From positions 992,001-1,056,000 of the forward strand of contig OZ241892.1 of the NCBI GenBank assembly GCA_965203485.1: a stretch of DNA of 64,000 nucleotides. The letters are read 5' to 3'. The notes beneath the pieces were generated by a model. The model had not been told where the DNA came from. It saw only the letters and a program-made list of their open reading frames with translations, and ran no database searches. Of the stretch, positions 21,234 to 47,828 are shown one piece after another (the first letter of the stretch is position 1; each line of letters opens with the position of its first letter). Origin of the DNA: Longimicrobiales bacterium. GTDB lineage: Bacteria; Gemmatimonadota; Gemmatimonadetes; Longimicrobiales; Gaopeijiaceae. Both the position numbers and the translations under genes were made by a program.

Positions 21234-22140
21234 GACGGGGGCCCCGCTGGCGAGAGCCCCGCATGGGCTCTTCTTCGCCGTTGCGACCTTGGTCGCGCCG
21301 GGCTTGGCCGCCGCGGTCCAGCAAGTCGGCCCCGCCAACGGCAGCCTCGTCGTCGCGGGCGGGGCGCTTCGCGATCCCGCCGTCTTCGCCCGCTTCGTCG
21401 AGCTCGCCGGCGGCCCGTCGGCGCCGATCGTGGTCATTCCGACGGCCGGCGGCGCCGCCGAGTACGACGAGTACTTCCGAGGCCGGCGCGCGTTCGAGGA
21501 AGCGGGCGCGCGGCACGTCGCCGTGCTCCACACGTACGACCCGGAGGTCGCCGACTCGGAGGCCTTCGTGGCTCCCTTGCGGGAGGCCCGGGGCGTGTGG
21601 TTCGCCGGAGGAAGGCAGTGGCGGCTGGCCGACGCCTACCTCGGCACCGAGACGCACGAAGCGCTCTGGGACGTGCTGGACCGGGGCGGCGTCGTCGGCG
21701 GCTCGTCGGCCGGGGCATCGATCCAGGGCTCGTACTTGGTGCGCGGCGACAGCCGCACCAACACGGTCATGATGGGCGACCACGAAGTCGGCCTGGGCTT
21801 CCTCAAGGACGTCGCGATCGACCAGCATCTCCTGCGCCGCAACCGCCACTTCGACCTGGTCGAGGTGATCCGGGCCAGGCCGGAACTGCTGGGCATCGGC
21901 CTGGACGAGAACACGGCCATCGTGGTGCAGGGCGACCGCTTCGAGGTCGTCGGCCAGAGCTACGCCGTCATCTACGACGCCCGGGCCACGCTGGACACCG
22001 GCGGCCTCTTCTACTTCCTGGCGCCCGGCGACCGCTACGACATGGCGGCCCGCGAGGCGTTCCGTCCCAGCCTGGACGAGGACCCGTTGGGCCGCGTCGT
22101 CCGCAAGCCTTGGCCGCCCGGCCCGCCCCTGGACCCGTGA
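21226..22140 (+). CDS. cyanophycinase-like peptidase S51, probably secreted
   Basis: GSLVVAGG, IPTAG, WFAGGRQWRL, GGSSAGAS, IDQHLLRRNR, GIGLDENTA; signal-like N-terminus. Confidence 0.85.
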   Translation: MRRTGAPLARAPHGLFFAVATLVAPGLAAAVQQVGPANGSLVVAGGALRDPAVFARFVELAGGPSAPIVVIPTAGGAAEYDEYFRGRRAFEEAGARHVAVLHTYDPEVADSEAFVAPLREARGVWFAGGRQWRLADAYLGTETHEALWDVLDRGGVVGGSSAGASIQGSYLVRGDSRTNTVMMGDHEVGLGFLKDVAIDQHLLRRNRHFDLVEVIRARPELLGIGLDENTAIVVQGDRFEVVGQSYAVIYDARATLDTGGLFYFLAPGDRYDMAAREAFRPSLDEDPLGRVVRKPWPPGPPLDP

Positions 22141-24098
22141 GCGGCGCTTCCCCGCCGGTCTCCGAGAGCCCGCCGCCGAACGCTTCCGGGATTCGAGTCG
22201 CGCTCCCCGACGGCCGCGATCTCCAACTGCCTCCGGGCGCCACCGCCGCCGACCTCGCCGCCCGCATCGGCCCCGGCCTTGCGCGCGCCGCTCTGGCCGC
22301 CGTCGTCGACGGCGAGACCGTCGATCTGTCCCGCCCCCTTCCGGACCGCGCCACGGTCCGCCTGCTCACGGACCGCGACCCCGAGGCGCTGCCCGTGCTT
22401 CGCCACTCCGCCGCCCACGTCCTCGCCACGGCCGTCCGCGAGGTCGTGCCCGGCGCCGGCATCGGCTTCGGCCCGGCGATCGACGACGGCTTCTACTACG
22501 ACTTCGACGTGCCCGAACCCTTCACCCCCGAGCAGGTCGAGGCCATCGAGCGGCGGATGGCCGGCGTGGCGCGCGCCGACCACCCCTTCGAACGCCGCGT
22601 CGTCTCCCGCGACGAAGCCCGCGACCTCTTCGCCGACGACCCCCTCAAGCTGGAGCGCCTCGAGGAGCTGGCCGACGACGAGACCATCACCGTGTACGAG
22701 AACGGCCCGTTCCTCGACCTTTGCCGCGGACCCCACGTCCCCAGCACGGGCCGCCTGAAGCACTACAAGCTTCTCGCGGCCGCCGGGGCCTACTGGCGCG
22801 GCGACGAGAACCGCCAGATGCTGCAGCGCATCTACGGCACGGCCTTCTTCCGCAAGTCCGACCTCGACGCCCACCTGCACCGCCTCGAAGAGGCCAAGAA
22901 GCGGGACCACCGCGTCCTCGGCAAGCAGCTCGACCTCTATTCCATCCAAGAAGAAGTCGGCTCCGGGCTCGTCCTCTGGCATCCGAACGGCGGGCGCGTC
23001 CGCCACGTGATCGAGGACTTCCTCAAGCGCACGCTCGTCGAGCACGGCTACGAGCTCGTCTTCACCCCGCACGTGGCCAGCGAGGAACTCTACCGCCTGT
23101 CGGGCCACCTCGACGTCTTCGCCGACGACATGTTCCCGCCCATGGCGGACGACGGCGACCGGTTCCGGCTCAAGCCGATGAACTGCCCGCACCACTTCAT
23201 GATCTACCGCTCGGCCACCCGTTCCTACCGCGACCTGCCGTTGCGCTACGCCGAGCTGGGCACTTGCTACCGCTACGAGCGCTCGGGCGCCCTGCACGGC
23301 ATGTTGCGCGTGCGCGCGTTCACGCAGGACGACGCCCACGTCTTCATCCGCGAGGACCAGATCGAAGAGGAGTACGGCCGCCTGCTCGACCTCGAGGACT
23401 ACCTGCTGGGCGTCTTCGGCTACGAGTACCGCACGGCCTTGTCCACGCGGCCCGAGAAGGCCATCGGCGACCCGGCCGTCTACGACGCGGCCTCCGAGCG
23501 ACTGGCCTCCGTCCTGCGCGACCGCGGCTTGGACTACGAGCTCGACGAGGGCGGCGGCGCCTTCTACGGCCCCAAGGTGGACGTCCTGGTCACCGACGCG
23601 CTGGGCCGGGAATGGCAGGGCGGCACGTTCCAGCTCGACTTCCTCATGCCGGAGCGCTTCGGCCTGGAGTACGTGGGCGCGGACAACCGGCCGCACAAGG
23701 CCGTGGTCGTCCACCGCACGCTCCTGGGGTCGATGGAGCGCTTCGTGGGCGGCCTCGTGGAGCACTACGCCGGCGCGTTTCCGCTGTGGCTGGCGCCCTG
23801 CCAAGTGCGGGTGCTCCCGGTGTCGGAGCCGTGGGCGGGCTCGGCGCGCGAACTGGCGGCGCGGCTGGCCGTGGAGGGCTTGCGGGCCGAGATGCACGAG
23901 CGCGAGACGCTGTCGTACCGCATTCGGGCGGCCGAAACGCAGAAGGTCCCCTACATGGCGATCGTGGGCGAGCGCGAAGCCGAGGCGGGCACGGTGGCCG
24001 TCCGCAAGCGGGGCGCCGGCCGCAAGCAGGAGACGATGACGAGGCAGGCCTTCGCGGAGCGGTTGCTGGAGGAAGTGGCTTCGCGGGCGCTGGGGTGA
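22137..24098 (+). CDS. thrS: threonine--tRNA ligase
   Basis: TGS domain, RHSAAHVLA, DLCRGPHV, RDHRVLG, KPMNCP, GAFYGPK, GSMERF. Confidence 0.98.
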   Translation: MSGASPPVSESPPPNASGIRVALPDGRDLQLPPGATAADLAARIGPGLARAALAAVVDGETVDLSRPLPDRATVRLLTDRDPEALPVLRHSAAHVLATAVREVVPGAGIGFGPAIDDGFYYDFDVPEPFTPEQVEAIERRMAGVARADHPFERRVVSRDEARDLFADDPLKLERLEELADDETITVYENGPFLDLCRGPHVPSTGRLKHYKLLAAAGAYWRGDENRQMLQRIYGTAFFRKSDLDAHLHRLEEAKKRDHRVLGKQLDLYSIQEEVGSGLVLWHPNGGRVRHVIEDFLKRTLVEHGYELVFTPHVASEELYRLSGHLDVFADDMFPPMADDGDRFRLKPMNCPHHFMIYRSATRSYRDLPLRYAELGTCYRYERSGALHGMLRVRAFTQDDAHVFIREDQIEEEYGRLLDLEDYLLGVFGYEYRTALSTRPEKAIGDPAVYDAASERLASVLRDRGLDYELDEGGGAFYGPKVDVLVTDALGREWQGGTFQLDFLMPERFGLEYVGADNRPHKAVVVHRTLLGSMERFVGGLVEHYAGAFPLWLAPCQVRVLPVSEPWAGSARELAARLAVEGLRAEMHERETLSYRIRAAETQKVPYMAIVGEREAEAGTVAVRKRGAGRKQETMTRQAFAERLLEEVASRALG

Positions 24099-30781: not shown

Positions 30782-31222
30782 CTTCGGCCTGGAGTACGTG
30801 GGCGCGGACAACCGCCCGCACAAGGCCGTGGTCGTCCACCGCACGCTCCTGGGGTCGATGGAGCGCTTCGTGGGCGGGCCTGGTGGAGCACTACGCCGGC
30901 GCGTTTCCGCTGTGGCTGGCGCCCTGTCAGGCGCGGGTGCTCCCGGTGTCGGAGCCGTGGGCGGGCTCGGCGCGCGAACTGGCGGCGCAGCTGGCCGCGG
31001 ACGGCCTGCGGACCGAGGTGCATGAACGCGAGACGCTGTCGTACCGCATCCGGGCCGCCGAGACGCAGAAGGTCCCCTACATGGCGATCGTGGGCGAGCG
31101 CGAAGCGGGGGCGGGCACGGTGGCCGTCCGCAAGCGGGGCGCCGGGCGCAAGCAGGAAACGATGACGAGGCGGGCCTTCGCGGAGCGGTTGCTGGAGGAA
31201 GCGGCTTCGGGGGCGCTGGGGT
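30782..31222 (+). repeat. diverged duplicate of the thrS 3' end (23657-24096), with a frameshift near 30876
   Basis: [29 protein letters not shown]...AFAERLLEE repeated with scattered substitutions. Confidence 0.95.
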
Positions 31223-33427: not shown

Positions 33428-33871
33428 CGAGCGTGTCGACGGGCGCTCCCCTTGCGTGGGCTCGCCGGTCCGTGGACGCCGTGCGGATCAGGGCCCCGGC
33501 TTTGCGGGCGGTCGGCGTTGCGATCCTCTTGGGCGGCCTTTCGTGGCGACCTTGGCCGTGGCTGGCTCGGCGCTTTGGGGCTGGACGATGCTCTGGTCCT
33601 ACGTGGAGCAGGCCGCGGCCCGTCGGGGTCGCGCGGCCGGCGTCCCCGGTCCCCTCGTCTCTCGCCCGCGAGACGGAGTTCCCGGCCGGGTCGCGCGGCC
33701 CCGCCGGGGGCTCCGCTCGACGGGGCTTTCGGCGGCCCTTCCGGAGCCGCCGCCGCCCGAACGGCGGCCACCGGCGGCGCCGCGGAAGTCGAATCTCGCA
33801 AAAACGCTTGTTCAGCAACGTGAATTGGCGTTTTTCGCCCCCGTGGCGAGGCGTTCTCCGTGCCCCGCAAT

Positions 33872-33984
33872 TTGCCAATTGCGGATCGATTGCTCAACTT
33901 GCTTGGTCCGTGACGGAGAGGTGCGGATCGAGAGTGAAGCGCCGGGGGCGGCCCGCAAGGGACCCGTCGGCAGTCGCGGGAAAG
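33872..33984 (+). repeat. promoter plus 5' domain of the large candidate ncRNA (third, partial copy), fused to the cassette B 5' UTR
   Basis: Matches 38659-38771; TTGCCA-N17-CAACTT. Confidence 0.8.
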
Positions 33985-38030: not shown

Positions 38031-38771
38031 GGTTGTGGACGGGAAGGAACGCCGCGTGTTTGTGGGGGACGAGACGCACATCTTCGTGCGCCCGGTTCGG
38101 CCCGCCTCGGGCGTGCCCTGCGACCCCGGCGGCCTGGCGGCGTTCGTGGAGTTCGGCGATCTGGACGTGCCGGCCGTGGTCGCGCGCAGGTTGCCGGCCG
38201 AAGTGCGGTAGCGAGCGTGTCGACGGGCGCTCCCCTTGCGTGGGCTCGCCGGTCCGTGGACGCCGCGCGGATCAGGGCCCCGGCTTTGCGGGCGGTCGGC
38301 GTTGCGATCCTCTTGGGCGGCCTTTCGTGGCGACCTTGGCCGTGGCTGGCTCGGCGCTTTGGGGCTGGACGATGCTCTGGTCCTACGTGGAGCAGGCCGC
38401 GGCCCGTCGGGGTCGCGCGGCCGGCGTCTCCGGTCCCCTCGTCTCTCGCCCGCGAGACGGAGTTCCCGGCCGGGTCGCGCGGCCCAGCCGGGGGCTCCGC
38501 TCGACGGGGCTTCGGCGGCCCTTCCGGAGCCGCCGCCGCCCGAACGGCGGCCACCGGCGGCGCCGCGGAAGTCACGCGAATCTCGCAAAAACGCTTGTTC
38601 AGCAACGTGAATTGGCGTTTTTCGCCCCCGTGGCGAGGCGTTCTCCGTGCGCCGCAATTTGCCAATTGCGGATCGATTGCTCAACTTGCTTGGTCCGTGA
38701 CGGAGAGGTGCGGATCGAGAGTGAAGCGCCGGGGGCGGCCCGCAAGGGACCCGTCGGCAGTCGCGGGAAAG
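38031..38771 (+). repeat. near-identical direct repeat of 33247-33984
   Basis: Propeller 3' end, downstream spacer and ncRNA 5' domain repeated with few differences. Confidence 0.95.
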
Positions 38772-39164
38772 CCGGAAGCCGGACAGGCTTCGCGCACAAG
38801 GGGAGGGGAGTCCCGTCAGGGACGACCGGCCCTGGACGGCGAGTCTTCCGGAAGTCGGCAGCGCCGGGGAGGCCGGGCGTCGCGTTGCGAGACGCAGGCG
38901 GTGCGGTTCCACGGCGAGCGCGGCATCCCGGTTTCGGCGGGAGCCGCGACGGTTGCAAGGTCGCTGGACGCAACCGGAGTCCCCGGGAACGGGGGACGGC
39001 CCGAGCCGCGGAGAGCGCCGGAGACGGCGAAGGAAGCGGGGAGGGAGAAGAGCACGGAGGACCGTGCCGCTGCACACGGCGGCGCCGAAACGGAGCCCTC
39101 CCGCTCGCCAGCGAGATTGAGCCCCCGGCCGGGTGGTGTGCCTCCCGCCGGGGGCTCTTTTTTT
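38693..39164 (+). ncRNA. candidate large structured ncRNA, copy B (diverged homolog of 44955-45421)
   Basis: Promoter TTGCCA-N17-CAACTT (38659-38687); same helices as copy A; terminator at 39119-39164. Confidence 0.65.
39119..39164 (+). terminator. intrinsic terminator
   Basis: GAGCCCCCGGC...GCCGGGGGCTC followed by T7. Confidence 0.85.
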
Positions 39165-39395
39165 GCGTGCGTTGCCCGTCTGGTCGCCGCGCGTTGTCCG
39201 TCCGCCGGCGGGTTACATTAAACGGCTTGGCTCGAGCCGGTCCTTGGAACCGAACGCGGGGCGGTTCCGTAGTGGAGCGTCCGAAAGCGGCGGGCCGCAC
39301 GTCCCCTTCAACCCGGTCTTCCCCGTGCGGGTTCCCAAACGACCGGCAACACTCGGAGCGCCGCCCTCCTCCTGGGACGGCGGCGAGCGCAACCC

Positions 39396-43259: not shown

Positions 43260-43610
43260 CTACGGCGCCACGCCGAACAGCACCAGCGGGACCGCCGGCG
43301 TGCTCCTCCCCTGCCGGATCAGGTTGTAGAGCTCCCCTTCGTAGTACCCCGGTCCGGAGGACATCTCCGCCTGGAGTTCCTTCATCGGCAGAATCTCGAC
43401 GCCCACGTCGATCTTGTCGCCGACGAAAAACGCCATGTGCTTGACGAAGATGTCGAACGCCACAAATGCATATTTGCCGAACTGCACTTCGACAGCCACT
43501 CGTTGCTTGACGTAGTCGGTCTGATTGTACGAATAGATCGGTAGTTCGAAGCGATGGACCATCATCCATTCCAGGCCGTTCAGATGGGAGTATCGCTCAA
43601 CAATGCGCAC
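43260..43610 (-). pseudogene. BglII/BstYI-family type II restriction endonuclease, apparently internally deleted
   Basis: YSHLNGLEW...SYNQTDYVKQRVAVEVQFGKY...DVGVEILPMK; only 116 aa. Confidence 0.75.
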
Positions 43611-43612
43611 GG

Positions 43613-44490
43613 CTAATGGCCCCCTCCGGCCAAGGAGGGATCGTATATCGGTTTGTGCATGGGGCGGGTGCGCAACACGCCGGCGTCCAGGTTACGAACG
43701 CGCTGACGGGCGATCTCGACGTACTCGGCGACCACGTCGCAGCCGAAGGCGGCGCGTCCGTGCTTCCGAGCAGCCACCAACGACGACCCAACGCCCATGT
43801 AGGGGTCAAGGACGGCGTTGCCCTGCTCGGTCATGGACAAGACCAGCCGCTCCACGAGTTCGACGGGAAACTGACACGGATGCATCGTCTTCTCGACGTG
43901 GTTGGCCTTTACGTTCGGGATGTCCGAGACGTCCGAGGGATTCTTTCCCAACGGGTTTCCCGACCGCTTGCCCCTGTTCGGCCCCTTGAAGTACTTCTTG
44001 CCCGGATACTTAGAGGGGATCCGAACGGGATCAACGTCGAAGTAGTAATCGTCCGACGTCGTCAACCACAATATCGTCTCGTATCGCCCGGAAAACCGCT
44101 TTGTGCAGTGCAGTCCATGGCCGAAATGCCAGACAATGCGATTGCGCAGTCGCAACCCATGGGACTTGAACACGTCGTACAGCACAATGTCCAACGGAAC
44201 ACCTCGCGGCCGCGCACGTGGTTGCCCACCTGCCAGCAAAGCGATCCCCGCGAATCAAGAACTCGGACGCATTCGGCGATTGTCGCCGCCTGTTCTTCCA
44301 AGTACCGTTCGAGGCTTGTGCGCGTCTCGTATGATTTTCCGATGTTGTAGGGAGGAGAAGTGACGACTAGATGCATCGAGTCGCTGGGCAACGTTGCGAG
44401 AAAGTCCAAGTTGTCGGCGCATTCGATTCTCACGGCTAGGTCGGGGTTGGGGCCGTTCGCGATGTCGGCGCCGAGCAAGTATTGGGTCAA
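43613..44490 (-). pseudogene. site-specific DNA methyltransferase (N4-C/N6-A, beta class), frameshift near 44196
   Basis: VTSPPYNIGK, HPCQFP, VLDPYMGVGS; split over two frames. Confidence 0.85.
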
Positions 44491-44920: not shown

Positions 44921-44949
44921 TTGCCATCTGCGAATCGATTCGTTATAGT
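44921..44949 (+). promoter_or_regulatory. strong sigma70-like promoter
   Basis: TTGCCA-N17-TATAGT. Confidence 0.75.
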
Positions 44950-44954
44950 TCCTA

Positions 44955-45421
44955 GCCCGGCGACCGAGGGCGCGGATCGAGAGTGACGCGCCGGGGGCGG
45001 CCCGCGAGGGAAGCCTCGGCAGTCGCCGGACCACGGGAGCCGGAGGGCTTCAGGGAAGGGGGAGGGCGGTCCGAGAGGAACGACCGGCCCCGGAAGGGAG
45101 TCCTTCGGAACTCGGACGCGCCGAGGAGGCCGCGAGCAGCGTTGCGAGACGCGGGGAGCGGGTTCCACGGCGAGCGCGGCGCCCCGATTCGGCGGGAGCC
45201 GCGACGGTTGCAAGGTCGCTGGACGCAACCGGAGTCCCCGGGAACGGGGGCGGCCCGGACCGCGGAGAACGCCGGAGACGGCGGAGGAGGCGGGACGGGA
45301 GAAGAGCACGGAGGACCGTGCCGTCGCACACGGCGGCGCCGAAACGGAACCCTCCCGCTCGCCAGCGAGACGGAGCCCCCGGCCGGGCGGTGTGCCTCCC
45401 GCCGGGGGCTCTTCTTTTTTT
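44955..45421 (+). ncRNA. candidate large structured ncRNA, copy A, unknown class
   Basis: Bounded by a promoter and an intrinsic terminator; more than 10 hairpins with GNRA/UUCG loops; structure retained in diverged copy B; no credible ORF. Confidence 0.7.
45373..45421 (+). terminator. intrinsic terminator
   Basis: GAGCCCCCGGC...GCCGGGGGCTC followed by TTCTTTTTTT. Confidence 0.85.
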
Positions 45422-45530
45422 GCGCCTTGTTCGCGCCGTCGGGTTACATTTGACGGCTTGCTCGTTGCCGGTCCCTTGGAACCGAAGGCGGGTCGGTTCC
45501 GTAAGTGTCCGAAGGCGCTTGGCCGCACAT

Positions 45531-45549
45531 CCCCCCCCCCCCCCCCCCC
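45531..45549. repeat. poly-C tract (19 nt) in the rpsA leader
   Basis: Seen directly; the homolog at ~39302 has only CCCCTT. Confidence 0.9.
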
Positions 45550-45638
45550 TCAACCCGGTCTCCCCCGCGCGGGAATCCAACGGACCGGCGAGAAACACCC
45601 GGAGCGCCGCCCTCCCCGGAAGGCGGCGAGCGCAACCC

Positions 45639-47828
45639 ATGACCGAGACAAGGGGTCCCGCTGGGGCCGGCGCGCGCCGGTCCCGGCCCGCACCGCGATT
45701 CGACCCGGACGACATCTCTCCGGAGTTCGTCCACGACACCTACGGCGAGGAAGTCCTCGACATCTCGAGCGACGCCTTCGAGGCGATGCTCGCCGAGCAC
45801 CAGACCGCGCGGGGCGACATCCGCGAAGGGGAGATCGTCAATGCCCGGGTTCTCCGGGTGACCGACGCGACGGTGATCCTCGAGTTCGGCTTCAAGAGCG
45901 AGGGCGCGGTCTCCATCGACGAGTTCAAGGACTCGGACGGCGTGGAGCCGGGCCAGGAAGTCGAAGTTCTGCTGGAGAGCCTGGAAGACGACGACGGCGT
46001 GGTCGTCCTTTCCAAGAAGAAGGCCGACTTCCTGCGCGTCTGGGAGCTGATCCGCGACGCCTACGAGAACGACCGGCCGGTCAGCGGTCTCCTCACCCGC
46101 AAGATCAAGGGCGGCGTGACGGTGGACATCATGGGGGTGGACGCCTTCCTTCCCGGTTCGCAGATCGCCCTTCGGCGGGTGCCCAACATCGAGGACCGCA
46201 TCGGGGAGACCTACGACTTCAAGATCATCAAGCTCAACAAGCGCCGCCGCAACATCGTCGTCTCGCGCCGGGTCATCCTGGAGCAGGAGCGCAAGGCGAA
46301 GCGCTCGACGCTGGTCAAGGAGCTGCTGAAGGGCCAGGTCCGGGAAGGGGTCGTCAAGAACATCACCGACTTCGGCGCCTTCGTGGATCTGGGCGGCCTG
46401 GACGGCCTGCTTCACATCACCGACATGTCGTGGGGCCGCGTGGGCCACCCGTCCGAAGTGGTGGACATCGGTGCGACCCTGGACGTCAAGGTGCTGGACG
46501 TCGACTGGAACCGCGAGCGCATCTCGTTGGGGCTCAAGCAGCTCCTCCCGTATCCGTGGAACGACATCGCCGACCGCTACCCGGTGGGCGCGCGCGTGCG
46601 GGGCAAGGTCGTCTCGATCACGAACTACGGCGCGTTCGTGGAGTTGCAGAGGGGCGTCGAAGGGCTCGTGCACATTTCCGAGATGTCGTGGACGAGGAAC
46701 GTGCGCCATCCCTCCAAGCTGGTGTCGGTGGGCGACGAGATCGAAGCGGTGGTCCTGCGCGTGGACCAGAAGGAAGAGAAGATCTCGCTGGGCATGAAGC
46801 AGACGGAAGAGGACCCGTGGCTCGCCTTGCCGCAGAAGCGCCCGCCGGGCACGCGCCTGTCGGGGACGGTCCGCAACCTCACGACGTACGGCGCGTTCGT
46901 CGAGATCGAGCCGGGGATCGACGGCTTGGTCCACGTGTCCGACATGAGCTGGACGAAGCACGTGGAGCACCCGTCGGAAGTGGTCCGCAAGGGTAGCCAG
47001 ATCGAAGTGATGGTCCTCGAGGTGGACTCGGACAAGAAGCGGGTGTCGCTCGGCGTCAAGCAGCTCGCCGACGATCCGTGGCCCGATCTGGTGGTGCGGT
47101 TCTCGGCCGGGGTGCAGCTGGACGCGACCGTGGTTCGAGTGCGCGACAAGGGCGTGCTCGTCAACTTGGGCGACGACGTGGAGGGCTTCGTGCCGGCCGC
47201 TCGCGCGGGCGTCGACTCGGGCGTGCTCGGCGAGCACTTCCGGGCGGGCGAAACCGTGGCCGTGCGGGTCGTGACGGCCGACGCCGGAGAACGCCGGATC
47301 GACCTTGAAGTCCTCGAGGCCCCGGAGCGGCGCAAGGCCGGTCCCGCTGGGGACGCCGCGGGAGACGACGAGGCGGCGGAGGAGGCCGGGACCGGGAAGA
47401 CGGCGTCCGAGCGCAAGGACGGGGAACCGGAAGAAGCCGTTGCGGGCGGAGAAGGCCGTGAGGGCGACGCGACCGCTCCCGTTCCCGAGGATTCGGAGCC
47501 GGAAGGAGCGGCCGCGGACGGAAAGGGCCGTGAAGACGGCAAGACCGAGTCGGCTCCTGAGGATTCGGAGCCGGAGTCCGAGACCGACGTTGCGCCCGCG
47601 CCCCTGGCCGACGAGCCGGAGTCCGAGGCCGAAGCTGCGGCGGTCCCGGAGGTCGGCGAGCCCGGGAGGCCCGAGACGGACGCCGCGGCCGATCCCCATC
47701 CGCCTGCTCCCGAGGATGCCGAGCCCGGCGGTGGGACCGCCGAAGCCGCCGAGAACTCCCCCGAGGCCGACGACGGCTCCGGTCGGCAGGGAGAGGCCGA
47801 CGCCCCCGCCGGCGAGCGCGGCGGCTAG
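45639..47828 (+). CDS. rpsA: 30S ribosomal protein S1 with long acidic C-terminal extension
   Basis: Repeated S1 domains (AFLPGSQI, ITDFGAFVDLGGLDGLLH, GLVHISEMSW). Confidence 0.97.
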   Translation: MTETRGPAGAGARRSRPAPRFDPDDISPEFVHDTYGEEVLDISSDAFEAMLAEHQTARGDIREGEIVNARVLRVTDATVILEFGFKSEGAVSIDEFKDSDGVEPGQEVEVLLESLEDDDGVVVLSKKKADFLRVWELIRDAYENDRPVSGLLTRKIKGGVTVDIMGVDAFLPGSQIALRRVPNIEDRIGETYDFKIIKLNKRRRNIVVSRRVILEQERKAKRSTLVKELLKGQVREGVVKNITDFGAFVDLGGLDGLLHITDMSWGRVGHPSEVVDIGATLDVKVLDVDWNRERISLGLKQLLPYPWNDIADRYPVGARVRGKVVSITNYGAFVELQRGVEGLVHISEMSWTRNVRHPSKLVSVGDEIEAVVLRVDQKEEKISLGMKQTEEDPWLALPQKRPPGTRLSGTVRNLTTYGAFVEIEPGIDGLVHVSDMSWTKHVEHPSEVVRKGSQIEVMVLEVDSDKKRVSLGVKQLADDPWPDLVVRFSAGVQLDATVVRVRDKGVLVNLGDDVEGFVPAARAGVDSGVLGEHFRAGETVAVRVVTADAGERRIDLEVLEAPERRKAGPAGDAAGDDEAAEEAGTGKTASERKDGEPEEAVAGGEGREGDATAPVPEDSEPEGAAADGKGREDGKTESAPEDSEPESETDVAPAPLADEPESEAEAAAVPEVGEPGRPETDAAADPHPPAPEDAEPGGGTAEAAENSPEADDGSGRQGEADAPAGERGG

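Follow-up and report, generated by a model that had tools for sequence, protein, structure and literature searches.

In the 64,000-nucleotide window analysed here (the whole stretch of contig OZ241892.1 of a Longimicrobiales bacterium from position 992,001 to 1,056,000), a candidate noncoding RNA (ncRNA) gene, hereafter copy A, lies ahead of rpsA, and a second copy, copy B, lies further upstream. Do the complementary loops of this RNA reflect a genuine tertiary structure and, if so, to what kind of RNA do they belong? A first-pass annotation had proposed two long-range pairings: TCGCTGG (45216-22) with CCAGCGA (45362-68), which we call pseudoknot 1 (PK1), and GCACAC (45326-31) with GTGTGC (45390-95) at the apex of the terminator hairpin, which we call PK2. 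All four segments are indeed found at these places in copy A and are present again in copy B (at 38961-67, 39108-14, 39072-77 and 39136-41, respectively). Within one genome, the loop matches do not exceed chance: copy A contains 25 long-range complements of 7 nt and 80 of 6 nt, against 23.7 and 77.3 in 200 dinucleotide shuffles. Since the window alone gives no more matches than chance, and since copy B repeats the 3' half of copy A almost base for base, the test had to rest on homologues. Judging from these, we are highly confident that a structured ncRNA gene is real and that PK1 and PK2 are true pairings.

Covariation of the long-range pairings

Homologues were collected with a covariance model (CM) built from 55 copies and restricted to nested helices. 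Since this model holds no pseudoknot pairs, the alignment was not fitted to the pairings under study. The main alignment consists of 95 CM matches from 86 sources, that is 94 distinct sequences, and the mean pairwise identity of the homologues is 58%. A hold-out set was drawn from 117 metagenome loci: 100 were searched, 85 matched, and 73 were left after dropping duplicates, known sequences and cut rows. Over the whole structure 89.8% of the positions expected to pair are paired and 63 of the 68 pairs show double changes; none of 500 shuffles reached as high a value, and slid controls gave 37-49%. The stem of hairpin Pa, whose loop bears one strand of PK1, is paired at 97.7%, with double changes at all 7 pairs.

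The six core pairs of PK1 are paired at 97.7% over the 94 distinct homologues, and double changes are seen at four of them: one pair is G-C in 67 sequences and A-U in 24, while each of the three others shows a single double change. All the A-U copies form one clade (support 99/99), hence this change counts only once. In the 73 hold-out sequences the one purine/pyrimidine pair left free is G-C in 65, A-U in 8 and mismatched in none, the search pattern having fixed the letters adjoining this pair. Nearly invariant nucleotides occur in and around PK1. PK1 was first described with seven pairs. The six core pairs are borne out, but the seventh (45216/45368) is U-A in 42, U-G in 36 and unpaired in 16 of the 94 distinct homologues; as it is not conserved, we take PK1 to be 6 bp long. 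Its 3' strand is better read as a single-stranded linker following helix Pd than as a hairpin loop.

For PK2, each hairpin was folded separately and the loop of hairpin Pe was compared with that of the terminal hairpin. At least five Watson-Crick pairs can form in 53 of the 67 type I copies. Counting each loop combination once, 32 of 46 have at least five pairs against 11.4+-2.5 after shuffling (0/10000 shuffles as high), figures which are not probabilities because the shuffles disregard relatedness. The variants comprise CACA/UGUG, CACG/CGUG, one strand-swapped pair, CAAA/UUUG and UCACG/CGUGA. Hence covariation supports the loop pairing that had been proposed, except that its sixth pair is weak. 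In the type II clade none of 28 copies reaches five pairs, and both loops are mostly ordinary tetraloops. The hold-out set gives at least five pairs in 28 of 65 sequences and at least four in 44 of 65; among distinct combinations, 13 of 41 reach five against 5.7+-1.9 after shuffling, with 1 of 3000 shuffles as high. Among the 21 hold-out type I copies below four pairs, 14 have a GNRA loop at the tip of the terminal hairpin; in those GNRA copies that were inspected, the Pe helix is longer. The kissing loop thus seems, from these alignments, to have been replaced by tetraloop docking in the GNRA copies. An exchange of this kind is seen in large ribozymes.

By the same comparison there are two covarying long-range pairings beyond those of the first-pass annotation. 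The first, PK3, forms at least five Watson-Crick pairs in 72 of 83 distinct combinations (51.4+-2.7 after shuffling), with several compensatory variants among the homologues. Energy models place a small CCG-AAA-CGG hairpin at its 3' strand; covariation favours the long-range PK3. The second, PK0, joins the first 5' loop to the loop of hairpin Pc in short-type homologues (53 of 73, against 24.7+-3.2). It is absent from the clade of the window, where its two loops are mostly GNRA-type. The second 5' hairpin of short-type homologues has a conserved GGACGC loop, for which no pairing partner was found.

The matches might have been chance complementarities in GC-rich DNA, recently duplicated, and the single-sequence counts equal to the shuffles, like the near-identity of the two copies in their 3' half, are compatible with this. 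The compensatory changes across 94 + 73 distinct homologues, collected with a CM without pseudoknot pairs, argue so strongly the other way that chance is largely refuted, and we give it practically no credence. A tertiary pairing of pseudoknot or kissing-loop type, as initially suggested, is therefore supported, the deeper alignment showing covariation for both PK1 and PK2. Peptide coding was also considered and rejected: the lengths of the span between the PK1 strands are spread over the three frames (43/24/28), and an internal open reading frame (ORF) led by a ribosome-binding site occurs in just 21 of 95 copies. By these criteria of sequence the RNA is non-coding.

Contacts within or between molecules

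We think it probable that the pairings are mainly intramolecular. PK2 in cis is favoured because the length of the terminal hairpin is fixed (36+-1.5 nt in type I copies, 18.4+-0.9 nt from base to apex) and because this hairpin starts about 13 nt from the base of the Pd/Pe arm, which is of similar length. It is favoured, too, because the GNRA cap together with the longer Pe helix looks like one docking module replacing another. The RNA would be transcribed from a strong sigma70 promoter; PK3 and PK1 would staple the 5' hairpins onto the 3' multibranch domain; the last hairpin would first terminate transcription and then dock through its loop onto that of Pe. Docked alongside the Pd/Pe arm, the terminal hairpin may act as an intramolecular strut which compacts the RNA and protects its 3' end.

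With moderate confidence, we propose from the comparison of homologues that this is a standalone, chromosomal, trans-acting structured ncRNA of Gemmatimonadota, belonging to the same broad class as raiA, OLE, ROOL and GOLLD but to a different family. Its most likely role, by analogy with raiA, would be that of a stable, abundant and non-essential RNA scaffold binding proteins in trans, a proposal to which we give an even chance. What the comparison of homologues shows is that the RNA has a promoter-like site of its own, nested helices that are conserved, and the four long-range pairings PK0, PK3, PK1 and PK2, and that no gene is fixed beside it. By the same comparison, the RNA has the traits of the large ornate bacterial ncRNAs: multistem junctions, covarying pseudoknots and highly conserved nucleotides.

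Several observations weigh against this interpretation. The independent changes in PK1 amount to about four to six events, the main one being a single event on the tree. Covariation cannot separate cis from trans pairing, and contacts B4 of ROOL and B7 of GOLLD proved intermolecular. Many Pe loops are palindromic (CACGUG) and would also permit self-kissing. The lengths of the Pd/Pe arm and of the terminal hairpin are uncorrelated (r 0.0); the terminal hairpin is of equally fixed length in type II, which lacks PK2; and the CM used for collecting homologues itself favours constant lengths. The GNRA docking was read by eye, and no receptor was identified in the copies inspected. The U tract is canonical in 15 of 18 close copies and in 19 of 76 distant ones, so that termination is not assured in the latter. 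Finally, no conserved adjacent gene for a protein partner was found among the neighbours scanned. In short-type homologues one can also notice a CAUCC-like motif, often following the terminal hairpin in place of the U tract.

The first-pass annotation had also thought of oligomerisation contacts. The same gene could indeed make an RNA in which one or more of the four pairings join different molecules, as in ROOL and GOLLD, into a ring or cage made of RNA only; paralogues that differ in their loop codes would then assemble separately. Three or four covarying loop contacts in a core of 190-300 nt, the palindromic Pe loops of many copies, the tandem or multiple copies per genome, and the precedent of ROOL B4 and GOLLD B7, whose covarying contacts are described as intermolecular by cryo-electron microscopy (cryo-EM) in the consulted part of 10.1101/2024.12.08.627333, all point in this direction. 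We nevertheless consider it unlikely, though it is the main alternative: geometry permits PK2 in cis, the loop has apparently been swapped for a GNRA loop, raiA, of similar size and with two pseudoknots, is a monomer according to the same preprint, and, in contrast to ROOL and GOLLD, the RNA did not turn up in viral contigs, phages or plasmids. Still more doubtful is a self-assembling class with a unit of 290 nt and up to four independently coded kissing contacts, building an RNA-only cage or filament. If it were true, paralogues in one cell would carry orthogonal loop codes, and the terminator would be an assembly arm, such that only properly terminated transcripts join.

Returning to the standalone, mainly intramolecular RNA, few large and highly folded bacterial RNAs of unknown function are on record (raiA, OLE, ROOL, GOLLD), and several of them were structurally surprising. 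The present family, from an abundant and little-studied phylum, packs many long-range pairings into its length, and its natural subtypes keep, lose or swap single contacts; they therefore form a ready set for cryo-EM and for functional questions. That a terminator hairpin should serve a second time, as an arm for tertiary docking, would be unusual, and it is directly testable.

Distribution, neighbouring genes and known RNAs

Of 314 genomes of the family, 50 contain the 3' half of the RNA by BLAST; one genus accounts for 44 of them (among its 53 genomes) and another for 4 (among 20). In 41 sampled relatives, BLAST gave a full copy only in genome G001, short matches there not being counted. The nested-only CM has matches in 62 of the 151 genomes searched in the order, and two to five copies per genome are frequent; three of the 62 are unpublished and were excluded from every alignment. 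A second CM matches 22 of 151 genomes across the phylum, other Gemmatimonadota families included, which is a lower bound because only 17 candidates per genome were scored. A pattern scan over the whole of GTDB gave at least 122 matches. We submitted 71 of these loci to the CM, including all 19 not labelled Gemmatimonadota: among the matches listed, none of the 15 labelled as other taxa passed, and 2 of the 4 unlabelled ones did. The RNA was found in 0 of 61 genomes of one other phylum. The viral contigs gave 0, 0 and 4 pattern matches, all 4 of which failed the CM, and BLAST with one homologue as query found no match in phage and plasmid collections. The distribution across the phylum is patchy. 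Several small genomes of a carrier genus have no CM match, hence the RNA seems dispensable in reduced genomes. Its length ranges from about 290 to 470 nt across the family. Of 93 copies, 83 have a promoter-like site at the distance expected, compared with 4 of 360 control windows, the window sizes having been chosen after the homologues had been looked at.

The first-pass annotation had also suggested that the RNA might be a switch, its fold being coupled to termination upstream of rpsA, so that the pairing of the terminator loop would control read-through. The terminator does stand about 220 nt before rpsA in genomes G000 and G001, and its loop is part of PK2. Yet the RNA precedes rpsA in this genus alone; at the relatives' rpsA loci listed, there is no RNA, and rpsA, which has a promoter-like site to itself, lies behind a gene labelled cmk-like by eye. 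At 55 of the 80 homologous loci the ORF downstream of the RNA is convergent with it, and the downstream ORFs as a whole come from many families. The pairing probability of the terminal stem is about 1 even with the rpsA leader included, no antiterminator or other competing fold appears in the nested ensemble, and a loop kiss would leave the stem intact. Lastly, the sister genome G002 has kept the rpsA leader while its RNA is reduced to a fragment of hairpin Pa, without terminator. These facts contradict the suggestion, and we consider such a switch extremely improbable; the RNA lacks the trait, typical of riboswitches and ribosomal-protein leaders, of a same-strand place 5' of one gene class. 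In G002 (L108 3220-3260), nothing but hairpin Pa and a portion of the hairpin after it remains before the rpsA promoter region, and one PK1 base of this remnant is changed.

Neighbour ORFs were called heuristically (with one known miscall, at G001), and the scan covered the proteins of 62 ORFs on the downstream side (out of 77) and 62 on the upstream side (out of 84). These 124 flanking proteins include no S1, transposase or reverse transcriptase and no mobile or defence gene. Those that recur are RNase H, seen 11 times, lipoyl ligase (9 times), L27 (4) and chorismate mutase (4). The order lipoyl ligase, RNA, convergent RNase H recurs in two families (L125, L131, L136, L153, L154, L197 and others) and is possibly the ancestral locus. 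One might think of a ribozyme, or of the RNA component of a defence system or mobile element that acts with a protein encoded elsewhere, given that there are near-invariant nucleotides in and around PK1, that the variable thrS-rpsA interval contains copies as well as fragments and remnants, and that the RNA has moved between loci. We judge this very improbable. A housekeeping locus recurs, with lipoyl ligase on the upstream side in 9 of 62 cases and RNase H in convergent orientation in 11 of 62, which speaks for vertical descent; the scanned neighbours include neither mobile nor defence genes; and carrier genomes have one to five copies each.

Neither does the standalone RNA correspond to a family that we could recognise. 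The window has no Rfam match at the gathering score, and chance matches arise only at relaxed E-values for copy A and 28 homologous loci. The raiA model (RF03072) has no match on copy A (E<=10), on the 28 loci (E<=1) or in 5 carrier genomes, and no covarying helix closing the 5' and 3' ends, as the P1 stem of raiA does, appears among the top-scoring pairs. ROOL (RF03087, about 580 nt) matches neither copy A nor the 28 loci, and a further search with it was empty, as was that of its control; GOLLD (RF02032) has no CM match on copy A, the 28 loci or in a further search. A transfer-messenger RNA was considered and rejected: ARAGORN reports none, and that of the genome lies elsewhere (156 bits). 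An SRP-like match, below cut-off, is also elsewhere. A motif which, by its pattern, we take to be RNase P-like lies elsewhere too, so that the RNA is presumably not that housekeeping RNA. The family is apparently undescribed and absent from Rfam. Supplements aside, the portions consulted of PMC12968392, PMC10861870, PMC5737381, PMC11109978, PMC8632094 and PMC6704655, and of the preprints 10.1101/2024.12.08.627333, 10.64898/2026.09.22.753630, 10.64898/2026.09.15.751765 and 10.64898/2026.07.01.735769, do not describe it. It could be listed unnamed among the 1.5 million clusters of 10.64898/2026.10.21.760802, whose main text, as far as consulted, gives no description.

The closest likeness is with raiA which, in the parts consulted of PMC12968392 and PMC10861870, is a standalone, chromosomal, trans-acting RNA with a core of about 200 nt, covarying pseudoknots, optional peripheral stems according to subtype and varied gene contexts. 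The present RNA is likewise standalone and chromosomal, with covarying pseudoknots, subtype-specific stems and varied neighbours. It differs in belonging to another phylum, in having three or four long-range pairings instead of two, in being often multi-copy where raiA is single-copy, and in a fold which includes a terminator-like hairpin, described in the same partial sources as atypical of raiA. With ROOL and GOLLD it shares many hairpins joined by covarying kissing loops and a variable 5' region. It is half their size or less, was not found in viral, phage or plasmid collections, and has housekeeping protein genes as neighbours; no association with tRNAs or prophages was seen, though tRNAs beside homologues were not scanned. 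OLE RNA is also a large ornate bacterial RNA, of unknown biochemical function; here, unlike OLE, there is no Rfam match, and no conserved adjacent partner gene was found.

Finally, the RNA could be a regulator that binds RNA polymerase and stands in for 6S or Ms1 in this lineage. Like these, it is a standalone gene with a strong (predicted) sigma70 promoter, sometimes in several copies. The 6S model (RF00013) has no match on copy A or in the genome, and it exceeds the Rfam cut-off in none of 40 genomes from the order (one sub-threshold match occurs in the unpublished genome G025), an absence which is weak evidence because the model matches just 5 of 14 control genomes. The fold of 6S is a long duplex with a central bubble. 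The present fold, multibranched and pseudoknotted, is unrelated to it, and the distribution is patchy; we regard this alternative as quite improbable.

Anatomy of the locus

Table 1. Positions, in the window, of the RNA copies, their structural elements and adjacent features
Feature	Position	Strand	Remark
Promoter of ncRNA copy A, sigma70-type, TTGCCA-17-TATAGT	44921..44949	+	sequence scan
ncRNA copy A, about 463 nt	44956..45418	+	ends deduced from promoter and U tract
Hairpin 45175-45203, loop with PK3 5' strand	45188..45193 (strand)	+	PK3 strand unmentioned in the first-pass annotation
Hairpin Pa	45205..45231	+	loop bears PK1 5' strand, 45216/17-45222
Pd/Pe arm	45304..45360	+	helix Pd, 45304-14 with 45351-60; hairpin Pe, 45320-45337
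PK2 5' strand, CACA loop of Pe	45326..45331	+	
PK3 3' strand, partner of 45188-45193	45338..45343	+	covariation
PK1 3' strand	45362..45368	+	six conserved pairs, 45362-67
Terminal hairpin 45373-45411 (-31 kcal/mol), then U tract	45373..45421	+	PK2 3' strand 45390-95 at apex
-10-like hexamer, conserved; candidate separate rpsA promoter	45445..45450	+	read in copies A, B, G001, G002
rpsA (ribosomal protein S1), neighbour outside the RNA	45639..47828	+	Pfam S1 x6
RNA copy B, including a promoter-like site and intact versions of all four PK strands	38659..39165	+	
Third RNA copy, promoter and first ~70 nt only	33870..33984	+	
Decayed remnant resembling the RNA 3' hairpin	38445..38497	+	weak CM matches

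Copy A (fold z -4.2; CM match at 45202-45415) has a 5' domain expanded in a genus-specific way and one extra hairpin, most relatives being 290-375 nt long. Copy B is 98% identical to the copy of G001 and is followed on its 3' side by the rpsA leader and then by a 5' fragment of rpsA (39396-about 39505). The 3'-hairpin remnant is also found at 33661-33713 and in G001 (L002 2174-2230), upstream of an intact copy, which suggests an older tandem copy. The hexamer ahead of rpsA has no clean -35 at canonical spacing and was missed by the consensus promoter scan.

The region from 24100 to 44900, between thrS (21597-24095) and rpsA, is variable and rich in repeats: it contains repeated beta-propeller-like genes, IS3-like and ISL3 fragments, and a pair made of a BglII-type nuclease and a methylase (43260-44239). 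With a duplicate 3' end of thrS near 30782-31222 and the rpsA 5' fragment downstream of copy B, it gives the impression that recombination or insertion has taken place repeatedly at the two housekeeping genes on its flanks. The rpsA leader (45430-45638) contains conserved hairpins, shared by copies A and B and by G001 and G002, and has no Rfam match; it is a possible autoregulatory leader of S1. That of copy A contains a run of about 24 C (45526-45550), one C shorter in one read contig. Both RNA copies are covered piecewise by contigs of two DNA runs, possibly the source data. Elsewhere (G000:C1 2694800-2696932), 17 tRNA genes are arrayed on one strand.
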